A DNA stretch of 63,893 nt, filler included, from Asterionella formosa (GCA_002256025.1; 24 parts of 24 records of this genome joined end to end with filler, not necessarily neighbours in it); one strand, 5' to 3'. Shown: positions 9,334 through 20,309, counted from the whole stretch's first letter. Numbers and translations are program-made. Notes: a model not told the origin generated them from the letters alone.

Positions 9334-10263
9334 AGTTTGTCCGGAAATAGTTGCATCGATTCGCCGGCACCACCAGTGACCTGGTACTGTTAATTATGAC
9401 CTTAATGACTTTAGGTAAATACTAATTAGAATATTAGTGGGATAAGGTACATCATGTAGCACCATGTTCCAGGTACCAGGGTACCTGGTACCCTGGTACG
9501 TAACATAAAATATTCAAGACGTACCAACACGTCCTTTCATTACCACAGTTCATATTTGCAAATGTCTACATGTCGCCATTATTTTATTATTAGGGATGCT
9601 CTGTTGGCCAAAAGAAAATGTATCTGGTGCGTGCTGGTACCTGGTACCAGAAAAGTAGGTAGCGATGTCCGAGCTCTATATGCATCATGTGTCGTCAGCA
9701 GTGGTGAACTTTTGGTCCAAAGCTGCGGACGAGCGAGAGGAACTTTCTACGGTATGTGTGTTACGAGTAATAGTATACTCTAGAGATAAATGGTCGGCCG
9801 CCTTTGTCTTTTTTGGCTTTATATATATTTCTACATAAAGAATATGTATATGAATTTTTGTTTTTAGTACATGCATACCGGTGCTGGTACCGGTAACTGG
9901 TACCAGGTAACCTGTATATAAATGTTGTACATCATCATACATAGTCTGTAACTACCGGTACATCTGCAATCCATTGCATTATGACTCTCGAATGATAAAA
10001 TGATTTTCTGAACGTTCCTCCGATTATTTTTATTCCGATATCGCTCTATAAGCAAAGAATAGGAAGTAGCTGAAAAAATAATATAGTACTCACTCAGCTC
10101 ACACAAATTCCATATGTACGAATAAATTTCATGATAAAAATTACTGGCACATACCGGTACATAAAGATTATTTAAGTGACGAGAATCTCGCACGATTATC
10201 ACTGCTCATCAAAAATTTATAAGATAAATTTATCAGGAACGATCATTATTAAAAACGAAGCAA

Positions 10264-13200
10264 ATGAAACTCCTTTCGCCGTTCGCGTTTGTATTATTCC
10301 TGATATCTACAACTGCTAAAGAATGGTGTGGACCAACCGCTGCTACTCTTAATATTAGGGGGTCCTCCATTGCCTTTAACTTGGTCAAAGCCTGGTCTCT
10401 TGCCTATCAAGAATGTCCTGGAATCGGATTTTCTCTCGGAGCCGGCAAATCGGATTATGGAGCCGAGTATGTTTGTACTAACGATGATGCCGATATTGGC
10501 ACCATGTCACGAGATTGGACCGAACAAGAAGCCACCACCACCAATAATTGGAAATATGACTGCACTATAGGAGTCAGCGGCAACCATTCCGTCATTCAAA
10601 TTGATGTTGCGACCGTGGGAATTGTGGTCGTTGCCAAAAAGGGAGGCTCTGCGAATGATTGTATTGACGCCCTTGGCGGGCTCACTATCCACCAGCTACG
10701 TTGGATCTATTCAAGTTACACGGAAGCAGAGCTGACAAGTACTGGTTGGGACCCGAGCTCTGTTCCTAATAGTGATTATGACGACGGGACACATTTATGG
10801 AACGAGCTCCTTGCTGACGTGTCGTGCCCTGCTACTGAAATCAAAATATCTGGTGCGGATGGATCCTCGGATTCTCATGATTTCTTTCGAACGGTTGTTC
10901 TAACTGACAAGATGCATGGGGAGACGTTTGCTACCAGCCGCGCATACGCCTACAACACCAATACTACAGAGTATGATCTGGTCCGATTTCTTGTCGCCGA
11001 CGAGATAGACCTTTCCTTCCTAGGGTTCGACGTTTACCATGGAAATAGCAGCCAATACTTATACGCAGCTGCGATACAGAACAACCAAAGTCGTTTGGTT
11101 GCTCCTAGTCTCGATACTATTGCAGACGGTAGCTACAGTCCCCTTTCTCGTAGAATTTACATGAACTTGTATGATTCTGAGGCTTCGCTTCGTAATACTA
11201 TTCCGTTTATAAATTTCATTCTCTCAGACAAAGGGTCTCGCATTGCCTCCAGTAATGGATTTTTTCCAATACTTGATTACGAAAAGAAAATTATGCTCGC
11301 CAGGCTTGGTTTGGTGAACTTGACGGACATTCAATGCAATCAAGACGACAATGGTGGAGTCGTAACTATGGCTGGATCGGTGCAACCCGTGGCAAAATTT
11401 TGGGCTGGTATGTACAGTGCTGCTTGTGATGTGCGTATTACAATGGATGGAGGCGGGTCAAGTGTAGGTGCTGGACGGGTATGTGCCAACCCTACGTATG
11501 GAGATGCTGTCACGATTGGAGACATGTCGCGTCAATGGCAGGATGATGAAGCAGCTACACCATCGAATGGATACATCTTTCATTGTGTCTCACCTGGTGA
11601 CGTGAATCGTTCGGTCATTCAGATTGATATTGCGATCGATGTCCTTGCCATTGTTGTTAAGGCAGGAGGCGAAGCAGCGGCATGTATTCAGGCACTTGGC
11701 GGTCTAACGATTGACCAACTTCGCTGGATTTACAGCAATTACACACTGGCTGAGCTCGCCATGTCTGTTGGGTGGAATTCTTCAACTGTTCCCAACAGCG
11801 ACGGCAATGACACTACACATTTGTGGAGCGAGCTAAAGAACACTAGTGCTTGTCCACAGAGTGAAATCCAAATATCTGGCGCCGACAGCTCCTCTGGAGC
11901 TTACGAATTTTTTGTTCAGACCGTTCTCACTGATTTCAACGAGGGTGAAACAGTGCGTTTTGATGATTACCTAGGCAGTCCAAACAATATCGATCTTAAG
12001 GACTACGTCAATTCAACAACGGATGCCATTTCCTACATAGGGTATCCTACCTTCCTGAGAAACACCGGATCACTCACTGCCGCTGCCATCAAGAATACTG
12101 CTGGTGTGCATGTCAAGCCTACTCCTGTCACTGTTGAGGATGGAACATACAATCCCTTTTCAACTCGCATTTTCATGAATCTTCTAAATGATGAGATCGC
12201 CTTGAAACCAATTCGGCCTTTTCTAACGTTCGCCATGAGCGATACTGGTACTTCACTTGTCGAATCTATTGGTTATTCGGCAATACCATCATATGAACGG
12301 GCTGTGATGCTGTCCCGTGCTAAAGCCGTTGGTGGCATCGATATCGAAACTGTCATTTGTGGCCCTCCTGGTGAAAAAATCAAGATTGCAGGGTCCTCAG
12401 CTGTATTCCCTATAGCCCAAATCTGGGCTGGCATCTACGAGATCGCTTGTGATGTTAGCTTCGTGATCGAGGGTGGAGGCTCAAGTGTCGGAGCAGGTCG
12501 TGTCTGTAACAACTCCGCATTTCAGAGTTCTGTAGATATCGGAGATATGTCTCGTCAATGGTCGACTGAGGAAGGGTCAACTATAAATGGTCATGTGTTC
12601 AATTGTAAATCGCCGGGAGATACGTCAAGAGTCACAATTCAAATCGAGGTTGCCATAGACGGCCTATCCGTTGCGACACAAGCGGGTGGTAATGCATATA
12701 ACTGCATTACAGCTCTTGGCGGTCTAACGACTGACCAACTTCGATGGATGTACAGCAGCTACAATGAGACAATGCTTGCTACAACGGGCTGGAGCAGTGC
12801 TGCCGTCCCGAACAGTGATGGCAACCCTGATACGTACCTTTGGAGCGAACTGCTGGATTCGCCAAGTTGTTCTGAGACAGAGATCAAAATAGCAGGAGTC
12901 GACATTGCATCTGGAATGTACGACTATTTCCTTCGGACCATTCTCCTTGACTATGAGAACGGTGAGGTATTCGACACTAGTCGTCCCGGTGGCTATAAAC
13001 CCGGCGATGCAGCGGACGAAACTCTAGTGTATTACCTTCATCAGTACGAAGATGCCATAGCTTACTTTGGATATGCGTATTACTACTCCAATCAAGACAT
13101 GATTTCGGCTGTGGCTATAAGAAACGACCGGGGCCAGTTCATTTTTCCTTCTCAAGACACCGTAGAAAACGGATCGTACAACCCTCTTTCACGGCGGATC

Positions 13201-13647
13201 TATATGAACCTTGCGTCGTCATCTCTCAACAACACCCGTCCATTTATCGAGTTTGGTCTCAACAACGACGATCTGGTGTTCACCACTGGATATGTTCCGA
13301 TACCAATTGTTGACAAAAATGAAATGTTTTCTCGTTTGGCAGGCGCTGGTCCCGTCACCGCTTCTACCACTGGCAACGGGGTTGTCCTCGATGATGGAAG
13401 TGTCTCATTATCTCCCACGGAAGCACCAGTCGATGTCAGTGTCTCTTTATCTCCCACGGAAGCACCAATAGTAACATCATCACAAAAAGAACCAAAAAAA
13501 TCTGGTGCCATTGTTGGAGGATTCATCTGTGGCATTTTTGTTGCTGGTCTTTTGATAGTGTGGCGGAGGAGGGCAATATTCGATGAAACGTTTGAATCGT
13601 ATCACCGAGACAATGACTTATTACTAACAGAGGAAACTCTCGTTTAA
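10264..13647 (+). CDS. Type I membrane protein with three tandem PstS-like (phosphate-binding protein fold) domains
   Basis: 1127 aa, no intron evident. Signal peptide; three ~330-aa repeats with GSS, GGGSSVG, DIGDMSR, AIDGL and GSYNPLSRRIYM motifs; SPTEAP stalk; TM AIVGGFICGIFVAGLLIVW followed by RRR and a short tail. Confidence 0.88.
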   Translation: MKLLSPFAFVLFLISTTAKEWCGPTAATLNIRGSSIAFNLVKAWSLAYQECPGIGFSLGAGKSDYGAEYVCTNDDADIGTMSRDWTEQEATTTNNWKYDCTIGVSGNHSVIQIDVATVGIVVVAKKGGSANDCIDALGGLTIHQLRWIYSSYTEAELTSTGWDPSSVPNSDYDDGTHLWNELLADVSCPATEIKISGADGSSDSHDFFRTVVLTDKMHGETFATSRAYAYNTNTTEYDLVRFLVADEIDLSFLGFDVYHGNSSQYLYAAAIQNNQSRLVAPSLDTIADGSYSPLSRRIYMNLYDSEASLRNTIPFINFILSDKGSRIASSNGFFPILDYEKKIMLARLGLVNLTDIQCNQDDNGGVVTMAGSVQPVAKFWAGMYSAACDVRITMDGGGSSVGAGRVCANPTYGDAVTIGDMSRQWQDDEAATPSNGYIFHCVSPGDVNRSVIQIDIAIDVLAIVVKAGGEAAACIQALGGLTIDQLRWIYSNYTLAELAMSVGWNSSTVPNSDGNDTTHLWSELKNTSACPQSEIQISGADSSSGAYEFFVQTVLTDFNEGETVRFDDYLGSPNNIDLKDYVNSTTDAISYIGYPTFLRNTGSLTAAAIKNTAGVHVKPTPVTVEDGTYNPFSTRIFMNLLNDEIALKPIRPFLTFAMSDTGTSLVESIGYSAIPSYERAVMLSRAKAVGGIDIETVICGPPGEKIKIAGSSAVFPIAQIWAGIYEIACDVSFVIEGGGSSVGAGRVCNNSAFQSSVDIGDMSRQWSTEEGSTINGHVFNCKSPGDTSRVTIQIEVAIDGLSVATQAGGNAYNCITALGGLTTDQLRWMYSSYNETMLATTGWSSAAVPNSDGNPDTYLWSELLDSPSCSETEIKIAGVDIASGMYDYFLRTILLDYENGEVFDTSRPGGYKPGDAADETLVYYLHQYEDAIAYFGYAYYYSNQDMISAVAIRNDRGQFIFPSQDTVENGSYNPLSRRIYMNLASSSLNNTRPFIEFGLNNDDLVFTTGYVPIPIVDKNEMFSRLAGAGPVTASTTGNGVVLDDGSVSLSPTEAPVDVSVSLSPTEAPIVTSSQKEPKKSGAIVGGFICGIFVAGLLIVWRRRAIFDETFESYHRDNDLLLTEETLV

Positions 13648-14177: not shown

Positions 14178-16635
14178 TCACTTTACATTACTGTATCGTC
14201 GATCCTCGGTAACGGTAGAGTCATGGTTATTGGCGAAGGCCTTGTCAAAATTAGGTGGGGGTAATCCAAAGGCAGCTCGAAGACCTCGACTCAACATCCG
14301 TTCACCAATACGTGCTATTATCTCACTTGTCAGTCGTTGAACTCTTGGCTCTTGAGCCAGTTTGCGTACAATAGGAACAAATTTTGCTGGATCTGTTTGC
14401 CCATTTCCAAGAAGGGATGCAATTCTGTTGAATCGCCTCATAGTGGGTGTAGCTTCTGGTAATACCTCTTGCAACTCCTTCGTAACTTCTTGCGTAATAC
14501 CTTTGACCGCATCTTCGCCCTGGGCACGTCCCACTACTGCTTGAAATGCGCGGAGTGCCTTGACTGCAGCTACTTCGTCATTAATTGAAAGTGCCTTGGA
14601 CGCTTGTAACAAGTACAACATGGACTCTGTTCCAAATTTATCGGTTGCATCAACAATCTGACCTGACAAGTCTGATAAGAGCGTTTCTCCATCATCTGAA
14701 ATCAAATAATCGGTCAACAGGTCAAGCGCTGCCGTAACATCGTATCCACTGTTCTCCTTCGCTTCAGCCAAGAGCCCCTCCAAACGTTCCCATCGGACAC
14801 TCCCGTCATTGTTCAACGCCAAACGTCTCAATGCTTCTTGTAATTCTGGTTGCGAATCAGTCAACACCCGACTTGCCACATAGGGATAAGCTTCACTAAT
14901 GATTCGAGCCTGAGGATCGACTTGAATGGCCAAACCTTCCAATACTCCCAAACATCGAATAATGGCAATATAAAAAGGCGGCAAAGAGAATGGATATGTG
15001 TACATAATGTCTCCCAGTTTTCCAACGACGTTTTTGAAATTGAGTTCTGAAATATCCGCACTCAAGACATCTGGTAACGCTTTTTCCAAAGCCACTTCAA
15101 TAGGACGTAGATCGGTTCCTTCTGGAATAAAGCCTAACCGTTGGTACAATAGTACCAGTTCGCCCCAATCTCGATTGACAATATGTACCACCGCCAATAG
15201 AAATCCATTTCTTTGCGATGCTGCGGCGTACGACATCATACCAAAATCCAAATAACAAAGCCGACCATCAGGACAGGCAAGTAGGTTACCTTTGGAAAAA
15301 AGAACCAAAAGCGAAGAACGGAAAAGGGTGAATTGTGTTAGTTGTGTGATTGGTACCGAAGTAATGAATGAATAGGTAGTAGAGAACGGCTTCCTTACCT
15401 GCATGTGGATCAGCATGAAAGAATCCATTTTCCAATATTTGTTTCAAGGAACATTGAACCAACGTGTCGACTAATTTTTTTCGATTCAGTCCATTTAATG
15501 TCAAGGCAGCACTGTCCGTTAAACGGAATCCATCGACCCATTCCATGGTCAATACTTTGGATGTGGTTAACTCTGAATAAACCTTGGGAACAAAGACATC
15601 TTTAATATCCCGTGCATATAGTTCATTGAATCGTTGTGCATTGGCAGCTTCAGCAACATAATCAATTTCTCGATAAATCAATTCCCCAAAGTCATCAATA
15701 ATGGATTGTACATTAATATCTCTATTCAATACTTTGAATATTTGATTGTACACCCCCGACCACCATCGTAGGACATATAGGTCAAGGGCAATAATTTCTT
15801 CGCAATTGGGTCGTTGGATTTTCAAAGCCACGACATCTCCATTGGACAACAGCCTAGCCTTGTATACTTGTCCAATGGACGCTGCCGCTACGGGTTCATC
15901 TTGTAGCAGCTCAAAGACATTGGCAAAGTCAATGTCCAGTTCTTGTTCCACCGTCTTGAATGCCTTGTCATTGGAAAATCTTGGAACATCATCTTGTAAT
16001 TTTTGCAATTCTTCCAAGTATTCACTTGGCAACAAATCAGGCCGACTTGCCAATGCTTGTCCACCTTTAATGATAGCAGGCCCTAATCCCGAGATGGCCT
16101 GCAGCAATTGTTTGGCACGCACGGGTCTATTTTTCTGTGATGTTCCAGCAATCGTATCAATAACTACACATGCGGCCCACCATCCAATAGGGAGTGCAAT
16201 TTGTATATTCCGAATGACCCATTTGGTCGGTTGCCGAAACAGCAATCGCTCTGCAGCAATTGGATCATATTTGACTAATGGTTCTGCCACCTTGACACCA
16301 TGAGCCCATCGAGTGACAGTGGTGGCAGATGTTGTTGTTGTTGTTGTCGTCACTTGTTCCAAATTTCCGTTTGGTTGTTGTTCCTGTTGAAGCCATGGGA
16401 CCGGAAGGGCTTGACCATAATTGTCAGAAGCAACATCTTGTAGCAATTGTTTAGCCTTGATGAGACGAGGGGATTCTTGTTGTGCAGTAGTAGTTGTCGT
16501 CATGGAACGATGCGTGTGCGCTGTTCGCTGTGCCAGAGAACCATGGGACATGGAAGATTTCAGCAGTGTTGATGACAGTCGGAAAGTAGACACTACTGGA
16601 ACGACAACGAGTAATATCCAGAGCTTTGTCATCAT
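14178..16635 (-). CDS. Plastid-targeted ABC1/AarF/UbiB atypical kinase; 2 exons (16635-15399, 15289-14178)
   Basis: IKGGQALASRPDLL, PVAAASIGQVY, VALKIQRP, FFHADPHA|GNLL, YLDFGMM; GTAAGG...AAG intron 15398-15290 restores HADPHAGN; signal peptide ending VST-F. Confidence 0.93.
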
Positions 16636-17509
16636 GATGGCCCCTCTTTTTGGTATTGTGTGCGTTTGTTGATCAGATATGTGTATTATTGATATTTAGT
16701 AAGGGCTTTGCAGTCGCGAATGTATGATGTAGACTGAATAACTACCGGTAGAGGAGGGAGGAGGGAGAGAGGTTGTGAACACGAATGGATGCCTAAATGT
16801 GTACCGGTATGTCATACACATTATTTTGCTTAATGGATGTTATGAGATCTTGCAGGGAGCAAGAATGTAAATAAATTAGCCAGCAGAGAAAAGGGACCAA
16901 GCGTCAAGCAAAAAAGGGCAAAACAAGATATGATCAAGATGATAGAACGAATTTGAGAGACAAGCAGGCGGCACGAAGAAATAACCAGCTGGTGCATGAC
17001 ATTCGCGCGATGTGCACACTCAATATCGTCACTACTACCTACCAGGGTACCAGGTACCAGGTACTGGTGCTGGTACCTGGTCTACCGGCATCATGAGAAG
17101 ATGGGCTGTCCATCATCCATGATGTCGTTGTCTGGCTCCGCGCAATACATAATACTACTTAGACTGACTACCGGTATCATGCCAGTACCGTAATACCTGG
17201 TGCCGGTAATTAATAGAGTACGATATTCTTCCCATGCGCAGGCATTTGGTTCCATCTAAACAAGTACCTCGCACATTCCTTGGAACCGTGTTCAAACCGT
17301 TTGTCCGTCCACCACGCTGAGTAAAAATCAATGTTGATCTACAGTGCCGTATATTTACATGCAATGATCATTGGAACGAGCCGGCGATTTGTTGTCGTTG
17401 GCGAAAGCCATTTTCCCGTCATTGTTTGTTTTTCAATTGAATTGCAGTTAGCGACCACTCGCCTGAATTCGCTCCGGCTATATACAACGTTCTGTGCTAG
17501 AAGTTGACC

Positions 17510-18260
17510 ATGGTAGACGCCGCATATTACGAGCCCGGAAATGTATCAAGTCCTTGCCCCTCATGGGCCCCTATTCTAGGCTTTCTGGGATGCGCCTTTG
17601 CCGTCGTTTTTGCCAGTAAGTAGAAGCGAAGAGTGTCAAGCCGAAACTGATATTTGCCTTGTCAGATTTAATGTCAGACCGGCCGCTAGCTAGCAGCTCC
17701 CAGTAGCCAGGATTCTCAGCAACAACTCACCTCCATCCCTTGTTTCCTTGATAACAGATATGGGCGGTGCATACGGAACAGCCAAGGCTGGTCAGGGTCT
17801 CATGGCCATGGGCGTGCGATCTCCGGAATTGCTGATGCAAAATATCATTCCTATTGTCATGGCAGGAGTTTTAGGAATTTACGGCCTTATTGTGTCTGTA
17901 ATTCTCAATGGAAAATTCACAACACCCCTTGCTGGAACTGGAGTTAGTACGTATTCTCAATATTCGGCATTTGCGCATTTGGCCGCTGGACTATGCTGCG
18001 GGCTATGCTCTTTGGCAAGTGGCCTTGCCATTGGTATTGCAGCTGATGCCGGAACCAGAGCTGTCGGTGCTCAATCAGCCATGGCAGCCTCGTGGAAAAA
18101 GATGGGATTCACAGGAGATGCTGGTGGACAAGCTACTAGTGCTGGTGATGCCTTGTTCGTTGGAACTGTCTTGATTCAAGTCTTTGCTGGAAACTTGGGC
18201 CTGTATGGATTGATTGCTGCCTTGATTTTGAGTCAGATGAACTATTCTTGTGGTGTGTAG
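17510..18260 (+). CDS. V-ATPase proteolipid subunit c-like protein; 2 exons (17510-17615, 17758-18260)
   Basis: MVDAAYY...[71 protein letters not shown]...CTCAC...CAG intron. Confidence 0.92.
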
Positions 18261-18512: not shown

Positions 18513-19652
18513 TTACAACATCCCTCCAGGCATGGTTCCATCATTCAATAACATACCCATCATTGTCATGGCCATTGTCAAAATGGCTCGCCCACCTTGG
18601 TCCATACTGGTACCAGTAGTCCCAAAGATTCCACTCAAAATAATTTCATCCAATTCATCTGTCACTTGTGCTCCACGTTCCTTGATGCCACCAAAGGCAT
18701 AGGATACATAAAATGTCCCCCCCACAATGACAAAGGCAATAGGGAATGTAATGGAAGGTCGTAGGAACCATGGAGCTTGTTCTCCAGTTTCTCCTTCAAA
18801 GAATCCAAAGAAATAATAATTTCTCACCTTGTCCAACCATCCATCCAATCCTTCACGTTCAGGGACCATTTGTTGACGACGAATGTCATAGGCATTGGCA
18901 ATGGCAGATGCTGTTCTCTACAGGAATATAAAATACATTATTTTTGTCATGGGGGGCAATGTGTATGCATGTGTGTATGTGAGAGAGAGTGTGTGTGTGT
19001 GAGAGAGAGAGTATCGATCATTCGTACATTGACAAAATACAAATACAAAAAAACGTACTGGTGTATTGGGTTCAGCATATCCCAAGGCATCAAAGTCTAA
19101 TTGGACAGGAGGATTTGAGTCTAAAATTTCCAAATCCAAAAGTATTGTTGCATGAGGAGAAATAAATGGGGCTACTCCCATTTCACCATAGGCCAATGTA
19201 GATGGGATAGTAATCAGAGCACGTTCACCAACTTTCATGGTACAAATCGCCATTTCCCATCCATCAATCATGTTGGAATCTGCCACAATGACTTTTTGAA
19301 AGGTTGATTTTGCGAATGGAGGAGAAGTACTAGTAGTGTTGTTGTTTGTGTCAAGCACCGAACAAGTGTACTTGACAGAAGCAACATCTCCACGACGTAC
19401 CAATGGACCTGTTCCTGGAGTAGATATTGTCTTGACAAGACCATCGGGGAGTGTAGTAGCAGTAGTAGTTGCAGTAGTTGCAACTTGGAGGGGTTGATGA
19501 CGATACTGATGTCGACCCTTTGTCATCAAGTGTGGTGGATGTTGTTTTTGGTGGTGGTGGTGGTGTTGCACAAAAGATGGCGCAACAATAAAGGCATTAA
19601 CGACTATTAATGGAGACAAGAGGCTGGAAAATAACAACACTAACTGCATCAT
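18513..19652 (-). CDS. Plastid-targeted FKBP-type peptidyl-prolyl isomerase with C-terminal TM extension; 2 exons (19652-19059, 18917-18513)
   Basis: Signal peptide VNA-FIVAP; MIDGWEMAICTMKVGERALITIPSTLAYGEMG...ISPHATILLDLEIL; GTACGT...TAG intron 19058-18918 (contains a dinucleotide microsatellite) joins in frame to the 118-aa ORF. Confidence 0.88.
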
Positions 19653-20309
19653 TATAAAGTTTCACAAGCCGTTGAGAGGTAGATGTGTCGGATGGAGGAG
19701 TTAGCAATAGCAGCAGTGACAGCAGTGGCAGCAGGAGGAGGACGGAACAACCACAAGGACAGAGATGTTGTCCAGGTACCGCAATTGCTTTATTAGATCT
19801 CTCCTTCTCCCGTGTCGGGAGGGAATCAGACTGTGGTTGTAAGATAGATACATTTTTATTTATATATGTATCTATACATATATTTATACATAGATCCTGA
19901 GATGCAGTCTACCGGTATATCACAGGTATTTATTAGGCTACTGCAATCAAGCAGTATATACCGGTATTGTACACAGGTACTCTGCATGGTGAATGCTGAC
20001 GTCGAATTTTAAGCCTCCAAGTGGATGCCTTGTAGCCTTGATCTGTCGGTTTGACACACTATAATACATATAAAAGTATGTATCGCCATACTACCCGGTA
20101 TAGTGGCAGGTACCGGTACATACCGGTAACAAACACGCTCGTTTGGCTTGCTTCGACATGACGTTTGTTCTCCGCTCCTTGTTGCTTCGCTCAATTTAAT
20201 GAAAATATATAATTCTCATGTAAAGAATATAAGTAGACTAGTGCAATCATCACAGCGACAGCATCGTTGTCATTGACTACTTTTGCTATAAATTGCATAC
20301 CCTGGTGCC

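Follow-up and report, generated by a model that had tools for sequence, protein, structure and literature searches.

A V-ATPase c-type proteolipid without the proton-carrying glutamate is conserved in diatoms and appears to have a separately evolved counterpart in haptophytes

The proton-carrying glutamate of the V-ATPase proteolipids is essential according to Hirata et al. 1997, as cited in a passage of PMC8804929. In the diatom Asterionella formosa (GCA_002256025.1), a gene at 17510-18260 (+) of the window, by which we mean the whole stretch of 63,893 nt that was analysed, encodes a c-type proteolipid in which this residue is missing. The locus raises the question of whether the gene is a decaying or misread copy, or whether the protein is retained for a role, inside or outside the proton pump, that does not need the carboxylate.

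The gene has two exons, and the intact frame and intron originally read from the DNA were borne out by RNA (Table 1). Exon 1 codes for Met1-Ala35 and the first base of Asn36, which cover the N-terminal tail, where an N-V-S sequon and Cys16 lie, together with most of TM1, and exon 2 codes for the remainder of TM1 followed by TM2, TM3, a loop insert, TM4, and the C-terminal tail. The spliced product of 202 aa agreed with the database protein P0003 at every residue. Position 17615 was joined to 17758 in Logan RNA contigs of 4/4 runs from 3 studies, confirming that the gene is expressed and spliced. The RNA contigs of these four runs contained no alternative letter at the Gly codon 18189-18191 and agreed there with the DNA, so the absence of a Glu codon stands. 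The sole differences between RNA and DNA listed were at 17928-17929 in one run, where a contig of run X7 (depth 7) had GC instead of CT, changing Leu to Ala in the TM2-TM3 loop; this variant probably represents a related strain. RNA contigs of the gene were also contained in metatranscriptomes from many studies, which suggests that it is broadly expressed, with the limits that the contigs give no ranking of expression level and that their depth is no measure of the ratio of Glu-less to canonical c expression.

Table 1. Positions of the proteolipid gene, its distinctive parts, and the neighbouring genes in the window.
Feature	Position	Strand	Basis or relation
1139-aa ORF, PBP_like_2 domain	10228-13647	+	upstream
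ABC1 atypical kinase, split over two ORFs	14178-16695	-	upstream
5' untranslated region, minimum extent	17438..17509	+	RNA contig starts: run X7 17438, run X3 17487
Exon 1	17510..17615	+	translation; N-terminus of P0003 identical; RNA contig cover
Sequon N11-V12-S13	17540-17548	+	Glu-less protein N-terminal tail
Intron, GT..AG, 142 nt	17616..17757	+	17615-17758 junction in RNA contigs, 4/4 runs
Exon 2 (P0001)	17758..18260	+	translation; PF00137 3.2e-21; stop TAG 18258-18260
24-aa insert S142-G165, cytoplasmic TM3-TM4 loop	18075..18146	+	gap vs 22 canonical diatom c
TM4 polar stripe Thr172, Gln176, Gly180, Asn181	18165..18194	+	differences from canonical c
Gly codon GGA (Gly180), place of the proton-carrying Glu of c	18189..18191	+	alignment to solved c
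ORF	18513-18917	-	convergent with the proteolipid gene
FKBP-type isomerase	18918-19661	-	convergent with the proteolipid gene

No functional link to the proteolipid was seen among the PBP-like, ABC1 kinase, and FKBP neighbours, and tblastn with Glu-less and canonical c queries found no second proteolipid gene in the window. RNA contigs of the gene continued for about 980 bases beyond 18450 into the convergent minus-strand genes, and the neighbouring transcripts may overlap at their 3' ends.

By fold and descent, the protein is a c-type proteolipid without the TM4 Glu that defines the function of this family. Its assignment in the original prediction was confirmed by a match to PF00137 (3.2e-21, in two stretches), by four helices, and by best sequence matches to c subunits. 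When phmmer was run against the PDB, the nearest solved relative was c (7.8e-30), followed by c' (1.7e-24), with c'' far weaker (7.1e-13). Identity to solved c chains was 40-48%, and exon 2 was 55% identical to P0380, a canonical c of a stramenopile. An AF2 model built from 79 homologues (mean pLDDT 79.8) contained helices at residues 20-53, 58-87, 103-150, and 163-194. The top Foldseek matches of this model in the PDB were yeast, human, and citrus c (E about 1e-10, TM-score by target 0.82-0.91 for ranks 1-19), and c'' chains (about 2e-7), Acetobacterium woodii c1, and Enterococcus hirae NtpK came lower. The extra N-terminal helix of c'' was absent, the tail before TM1 being 19 residues long with pLDDT below 50 at residues 1-11, and the TM4 Glu by which a fungal c' (Vma11) is recognised, E145 in the yeast protein according to a passage of PMC8804929, was lacking as well. 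ESM Atlas look-ups returned generic proteolipid clusters only.

Gly180 aligned with the Glu of LILIFAE[AV]L[GA]LYGLI in TM4 of solved c subunits, and the predicted loss of this Glu extended to the relatives, since 0/120 of the best 120 of 3896 homologues carried the Glu motif. The only acidic residues inside predicted helices were E59, D132, and D166, which lie at cytoplasmic helix ends or in an extension of TM3, leaving the helix cores without Asp or Glu. In TM2, the sole acidic residue is E59 at the cytoplasmic start of the helix; since the core of TM2 is thus without Glu, the c''-type site is missing as well, as had also been predicted. Comparison at both sites supports a c-type proteolipid that would be unable to carry protons by the canonical route.

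The surroundings of the lost Glu differ from canonical c in a consistent way. Within TM4, the fixed differences between Glu-less and canonical c, given in this order, were T172/M, Q176/L, V177/I, and N181/A, and Q176 and N181 were invariant among 79 sequences, including the divergent type from Aulacoseira. T172, Q176, and position 180 are spaced by four residues, so by helix geometry they would share the helix face on which Glu sits in c, and this polar stripe is accompanied by Ser120 on TM3. The insertion of about 20 aa noticed between TM3 and TM4 measured 24 aa when aligned against 22 canonical diatom c sequences. Its residues W148, K149, K150, M151, G152, F153, T154, G155, and D156 were invariant or at least 90% conserved in the 79 sequences. 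In the AF2 model, the TM3 helix extended to K150, about three extra turns, and residues 151-162 were disordered (pLDDT about 50). That the insert arose when the GDAG loop was duplicated in tandem is a weak idea; HMMER aligned part of the Glu-less protein to the canonical loop, but a second GDAG is absent from the Aulacoseira insert.

Homologues numbered 3896 at E <=1e-10, and the best 120 of them were 80-100% identical over exon 2. Glu was missing in all 120 (65 with Gly-Asn and 55 with Ser-Asn at the site), and all 120 contained the W[KR][KR]MGF insert. Named sources were the diatoms Fistulifera, Seminavis, Epithemia, Craspedostauros, Cylindrotheca, Attheya, Odontella, Leptocylindrus, Grammatophora, and Eucampia, among which are pennates with and without a raphe and centrics of both the polar and the radial type. 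Aulacoseira had a divergent Glu-less form, 55% identical, which shared the LIQVFAGN motif and had a different, Lys/Gly-rich insert. A conserved Glu-less, insert-bearing clade of diatoms, for which the original prediction had proposed a phylogenetic search, is therefore present.

Selection on exon 2 was estimated by NG86 from the window and those 47 of 80 metagenome loci that had one uninterrupted match. The loci excluded were L042-L044 and L046 (intron or stop codons in the match), L053 (stop codon), L052 and L054-L056 (partial or split), and L057-L080 (other paralogues and weak matches). The 42 unique coding sequences formed 861 pairs, of which 596 were synonymously saturated and 262 were usable (finite dS >0.05). 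Among the usable pairs, dN/dS had a median of 0.061 and a maximum of 0.134, and the Glu-less gene is under strong purifying selection. The codons at the lost-Glu site in the orthologous loci listed were GGT/GGA/GGG/GGC or TCC/TCA/TCT and never GAR. A change from Gly to a Ser (TCN) codon takes two base changes, and the one-step change of GGA to GAA was absent from the same loci. As only Gly and Ser codons were found and never GAR, a small residue is evidently required at this position. Some of the orthologues (L042-L044, L046) were interrupted again after IYGL in TM2.

Since the residue is considered essential, its absence would ordinarily point to lost function, that is, a decaying or neutral duplicate, or an error of assembly or annotation. 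For this gene we regard that as scarcely credible, and it was refuted by the intact frame and spliced mRNA in 4/4 RNA runs, the sharing of the Glu-less state by the homologues, the dN/dS of 0.06, and the synonymous variation in the codon at the lost-Glu site. The substitution, then, is neither private to one species nor under relaxed selection.

Another possibility is that the protein still carries an ion, at a non-carboxylate site composed of Thr172, Gln176, Ser/Gly180, Asn181, and Ser120. The polar residues do lie on one face of TM4 (i, i+4, i+8) and are invariant or nearly so. We nevertheless consider this highly improbable, because Gly stands at the centre of the putative site in half of the clade and the membrane core contains no Glu or Asp, whereas no rotor ion site is known that does without one of these residues.

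The Glu-less protein does not take the place of c. Epithemia clementina possessed canonical P0539 and Glu-less P0078, and Aulacoseira subarctica canonical P0422 and Glu-less P0129, and from these two relatives of the source organism it is an additional copy and no replacement. Canonical diatom c, with LILIFAEALGLYGLI, was nearly invariant, its mean pairwise identity being 95% (22 sequences) against 77% for the Glu-less paralogue (81 sequences), which is thus the faster-evolving of the two. The TM2 consensus was the same in both. Fixed differences were concentrated in TM4 and in all three loops, the two cytoplasmic ones and the lumenal one, and were few in TM1 and TM3: A46, M51, A52, R56, and S57 in the first cytoplasmic loop; L85, N86, and K88 in the lumenal loop; S120, S123, A131, T135, and A140 in TM3 and its cytoplasmic end; and T172, Q176, V177, Gly/Ser180, and N181 in TM4. 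The intron also differed in position, being located in TM1 in the Glu-less gene and right after LGLYG in TM4 in canonical diatom c genes. Many database 'proteins' of about 200 aa (P0433-P0466 and similar) are read-throughs of the canonical c intron.

The two paralogues differed further in the N-terminal tail, where an N-x-S/T sequon was present in 59/81 Glu-less and 0/22 canonical diatom c sequences. The tail is presumably on the lumenal side, as we assume from the topology of c subunits, and its glycosylation is possible if it does face the lumen. The corresponding counts in haptophytes were 0/37 for Glu-less and 0/11 for canonical proteins.

A third c-type paralogue was also found (P0140, P0284), which retains the TM4 Glu (IMLIFSEALALYGLI) and has an unusual TM1 loop, GAAWGTWKSG, and an acidic insert of 30-45 aa in the TM3-TM4 loop. 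Its loci (L057-L071 and L073-L077, e.g. L060:601-1125) were frequent on marine metagenome contigs, and its closest ESM Atlas cluster was mostly Bacillariophyta, which is a lead only. Diatoms may have three c-type subunits in addition to c''.

A search of 1.84 billion cluster representatives, with a follow-up search, revealed a Glu-less clade in haptophytes. It comprised 37 cluster representatives, of which P0138 of Prymnesium parvum was the only named member. In these 37, the TM4 motif was LIQG[TC][AG]SAL, with Ser replacing Glu, and the TM3-TM4 loop contained an insert of the APRHKPAHVTK type, 8 to 11 residues by alignment and unrelated to the diatom insert. Two of the metagenome loci (L072, L075) were of the haptophyte type. 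As in the diatoms, a canonical c (P0354) was present alongside the Glu-less P0138 in P. parvum.

A maximum-likelihood tree was calculated from 58 rows of a short alignment (164 columns), after exclusion of the columns for the insert and the TM4 traits and of 14 rows that were long or truncated. In this tree, whose bootstrap values are not entirely settled, the haptophyte Glu-less clade joined haptophyte canonical c (96/80), and a 100/99 split grouped the diatom Glu-less proteins with canonical stramenopile c, including that of Ectocarpus and Chattonella. The AU test spoke against one origin for all Glu-less proteins, which was rejected at p 0.0185 with a cost of 30.6 log-likelihood units, where the p value is somewhat generous because the constraint group was chosen after a quick tree. 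The haptophyte Glu-less copy thus appears, from this phylogeny, to have evolved separately from the diatom one. Compared with their own canonical sisters, both clades had Gln in place of Leu at 176 and Ser in place of Gly at 120, and gain of a loop insert and loss of Glu to Ser or Gly were also common to both. Gln176 lies one turn ahead of the lost Glu in TM4. The parallel evolution of the Gln and Ser changes in haptophytes argues that the polar replacement is functional. Lone Glu-less c-type representatives occurred elsewhere (P0257, P0151, P0265), one of them from the nematode Acrobeloides nanus with LIQAFASV, no insert, and a very long branch; these may be genuine paralogues or may stem from errors in gene prediction.

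The haptophyte clade also bears on the suggested relevance to the silica deposition vesicle. P. parvum is not known to make a silica wall, and since the Glu-less state occurs in this species too, the trait is not tied to silica; this part of the original prediction found no support. In the literature, the algal V-ATPase has been connected with the formation of silica, with calcification, and with the concentration of carbon.

What, then, would a c subunit without its carboxylate do? The balance tips slightly towards a conserved paralogue of V0 c that acts as a minority, proton-blind ring subunit beside canonical c. The fold and the helix surfaces that pack against c are retained and the TM4 Glu is replaced, and V0 rings would take up the protein as a minority subunit adjoining canonical c, with no proton bound. 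Its uncharged polar stripe would slip past the stator arginine with no salt bridge formed, much as a site that is always 'protonated' would. With one subunit of this kind in the ring, each turn would move one proton fewer and the carriers would be separated at one point by a gap of double width, resulting in a steeper pH gradient per ATP, a defined resting position of the ring, or both. The insert and the altered first cytoplasmic loop would provide a contact of its own on the cytoplasmic face, near subunit d.

Placement in the V0 ring next to canonical c is suggested by the packing helices, which have been kept. In a complex model, the Epithemia Glu-less protein with three canonical c chains obtained a score of 0.68 against 0.00 for the best of three controls, possibly because c-rings are among the solved structures; the mark applied was reached by 51/78 solved complexes and 2/108 mismatched pairs. 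The model placed the Glu-less subunit between two c copies, with at least 88% contact agreement between runs and partner pLDDT of at least 73. The equivalents of Q176, position 180, and N181 were outside the confident contacts, and so was Glu146 of the canonical chain. The pass may show likeness to solved c-rings and not binding. The non-translocating ring subunit that had been proposed is therefore compatible with the model and with a TM2 consensus equal to that of canonical c; that it belongs to the ring at all, we infer.

Studies on yeast offer a partial guide. In passages of PMC8804929, yeast c'' is described as naturally having Ser192 where TM4 of c carries its Glu, and cells with a c''E108G ring, in which c'' is proton-blind, grew on YPD+Ca and did not grow on the most stringent media (pH 7 + Zn or Ca). 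In yeast, one empty position is harmful without being fully lethal; the growth is a precedent for our main reading, and the failure on stringent media, a sign of a crippled pump, counts against it. It is also argued there that unevenly spaced carriers are important for the match with the three-step motor and in keeping free Vo autoinhibited.

In an alternative reading, the protein would be a brake or parking subunit, leaving rings stalled or sealed to protons, for instance in free V0 after release of V1, and would regulate the pump with no change of gearing. A single proton-blind subunit severely impaired the yeast enzyme (PMC8804929), uneven Glu spacing is proposed in passages of PMC8804929 and PMC9280200 to aid the autoinhibition of free Vo, and the invariant cytoplasmic insert could touch the stator or a regulator. 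We think a brake improbable, since RNA contigs in metatranscriptomes of many studies suggest broad expression and the Gln/Ser/Asn stripe, having arisen twice, looks like eased passage past the arginine and not like a block.

The insert, in turn, could be read in opposite ways. The inner ring is built of helices 1 and 3, which makes TM3 an inner helix (a passage of PMC8804929), and subunit d binds the cytoplasmic loops of c (a passage of PMC9280200). Because of this binding, d is the first candidate to consider, whether as partner or as victim, for the insert, and with TM3 on the inner ring, its lengthened helix could clash with d instead of binding it. A conserved insert on an inner-ring helix that blocks capping by d would suit a protein working outside the pump, in rings of its own or in V0-like assemblies that never pump, as a pore, fusion factor, scaffold, or 'ductin'-type protein. 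The complete loss of the carboxylate and the faster evolution relative to canonical c would agree with such a role, and passages of PMC4838861, PMC10203432, and PMC9280200 report proteolipid rings as large pores and fusion factors. A homomeric ring would, however, be free to drift, whereas the canonical-like TM2 and little-changed TM1 and TM3 fit co-assembly with c, and the model, perhaps through likeness to solved c-rings, sets the protein between canonical c subunits. On these grounds we hold a role outside the pump to be unlikely.

The reading as a minority ring subunit can be extended to both algal groups, such that diatoms and haptophytes would each have evolved, separately, a proton-blind V0 subunit as a natural gear change, one per ring. 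We put this forward as tentative and somewhat doubtful. The Gln/Ser/Asn site would slide past the stator arginine, H+/ATP would fall, and one rotor step would widen, allowing steeper pH gradients in mineralising vesicles or across the membranes around the complex plastid, and the lineage-specific cytoplasmic inserts might set the position of the subunit in the ring.

The protein can be compared with several known systems. With canonical c (Vma3, ATP6V0C, VHA-c; P0539 and P0565 in diatoms) it has in common the four-helix double hairpin of PF00137, a lumenal Cys near each terminus, and a TM-score by target of up to 0.91; it differs in Gly/Ser at the site, Gln at -4 and Asn at +1, the 24-aa insert, both altered cytoplasmic loops, and the intron in TM1. 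The single-copy c'' (Vma16, ATP6V0B) creates uneven carboxylate spacing, as is proposed here for the Glu-less protein, and yeast c'' Ser192 (passages of PMC8804929) resembles the Ser in half of the diatom clade and in the haptophyte clade, but c'' keeps its helix 2 Glu and the extra N-terminal helix, neither of which the Glu-less protein has. A further parallel, described in passages of PMC8804929, is the engineered yeast c''E108G ring called 'Delete' (Khan et al., EMBO J 2021), in which one of the ten proteolipids carries no proton, its mutated site being Gly and its TM4 site Ser. That ring is artificial, whereas the diatom copy occurs naturally in addition to c, has a compensating polar stripe and an insert, and is maintained by selection. 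The F-type c1 of A. woodii (PDB 4bem; Foldseek 4bem_J, E 1.6e-5) is a duplicated hairpin that has lost ion sites. Site-poor rotor subunits such as this one sit in mixed rings and, as far as is known, keep at least one carboxylate each, unlike the Glu-less protein with no carboxylate in its helix cores. The haptophyte Glu-less proteins resemble the diatom ones in Ser, the TM4 Gln, the TM3 Ser, a loop insert, and a canonical c beside them, and differ in the shorter, unrelated insert and the motif LIQG[TC][AG]SAL.

Diatom V-ATPases have reportedly been the subject of work by Bussard and Lopez. In the literature searched, we found no account, for either diatoms or haptophytes, of a V0 c paralogue that lacks the Glu. 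Passages of PMC2784329 note two divergent c/c' paralogues in E. huxleyi and make no comment on their Glu. Judged from the tree, the haptophyte Glu-less clade of its own, grouped with haptophyte canonical c, is new.

The Glu of each proteolipid is regarded as indispensable for the V-ATPase, yet selection keeps a Glu-less paralogue across diatoms. Two major marine algal groups appear to use either rings with an empty position or the proteolipid fold for a non-pumping task. Either outcome would bear on the ways in which rotary ATPases can have their coupling ratio and rotor asymmetry tuned and on the control of pH by algae, and the Glu-less copies point to an unstudied tuning of the vacuolar proton pump.
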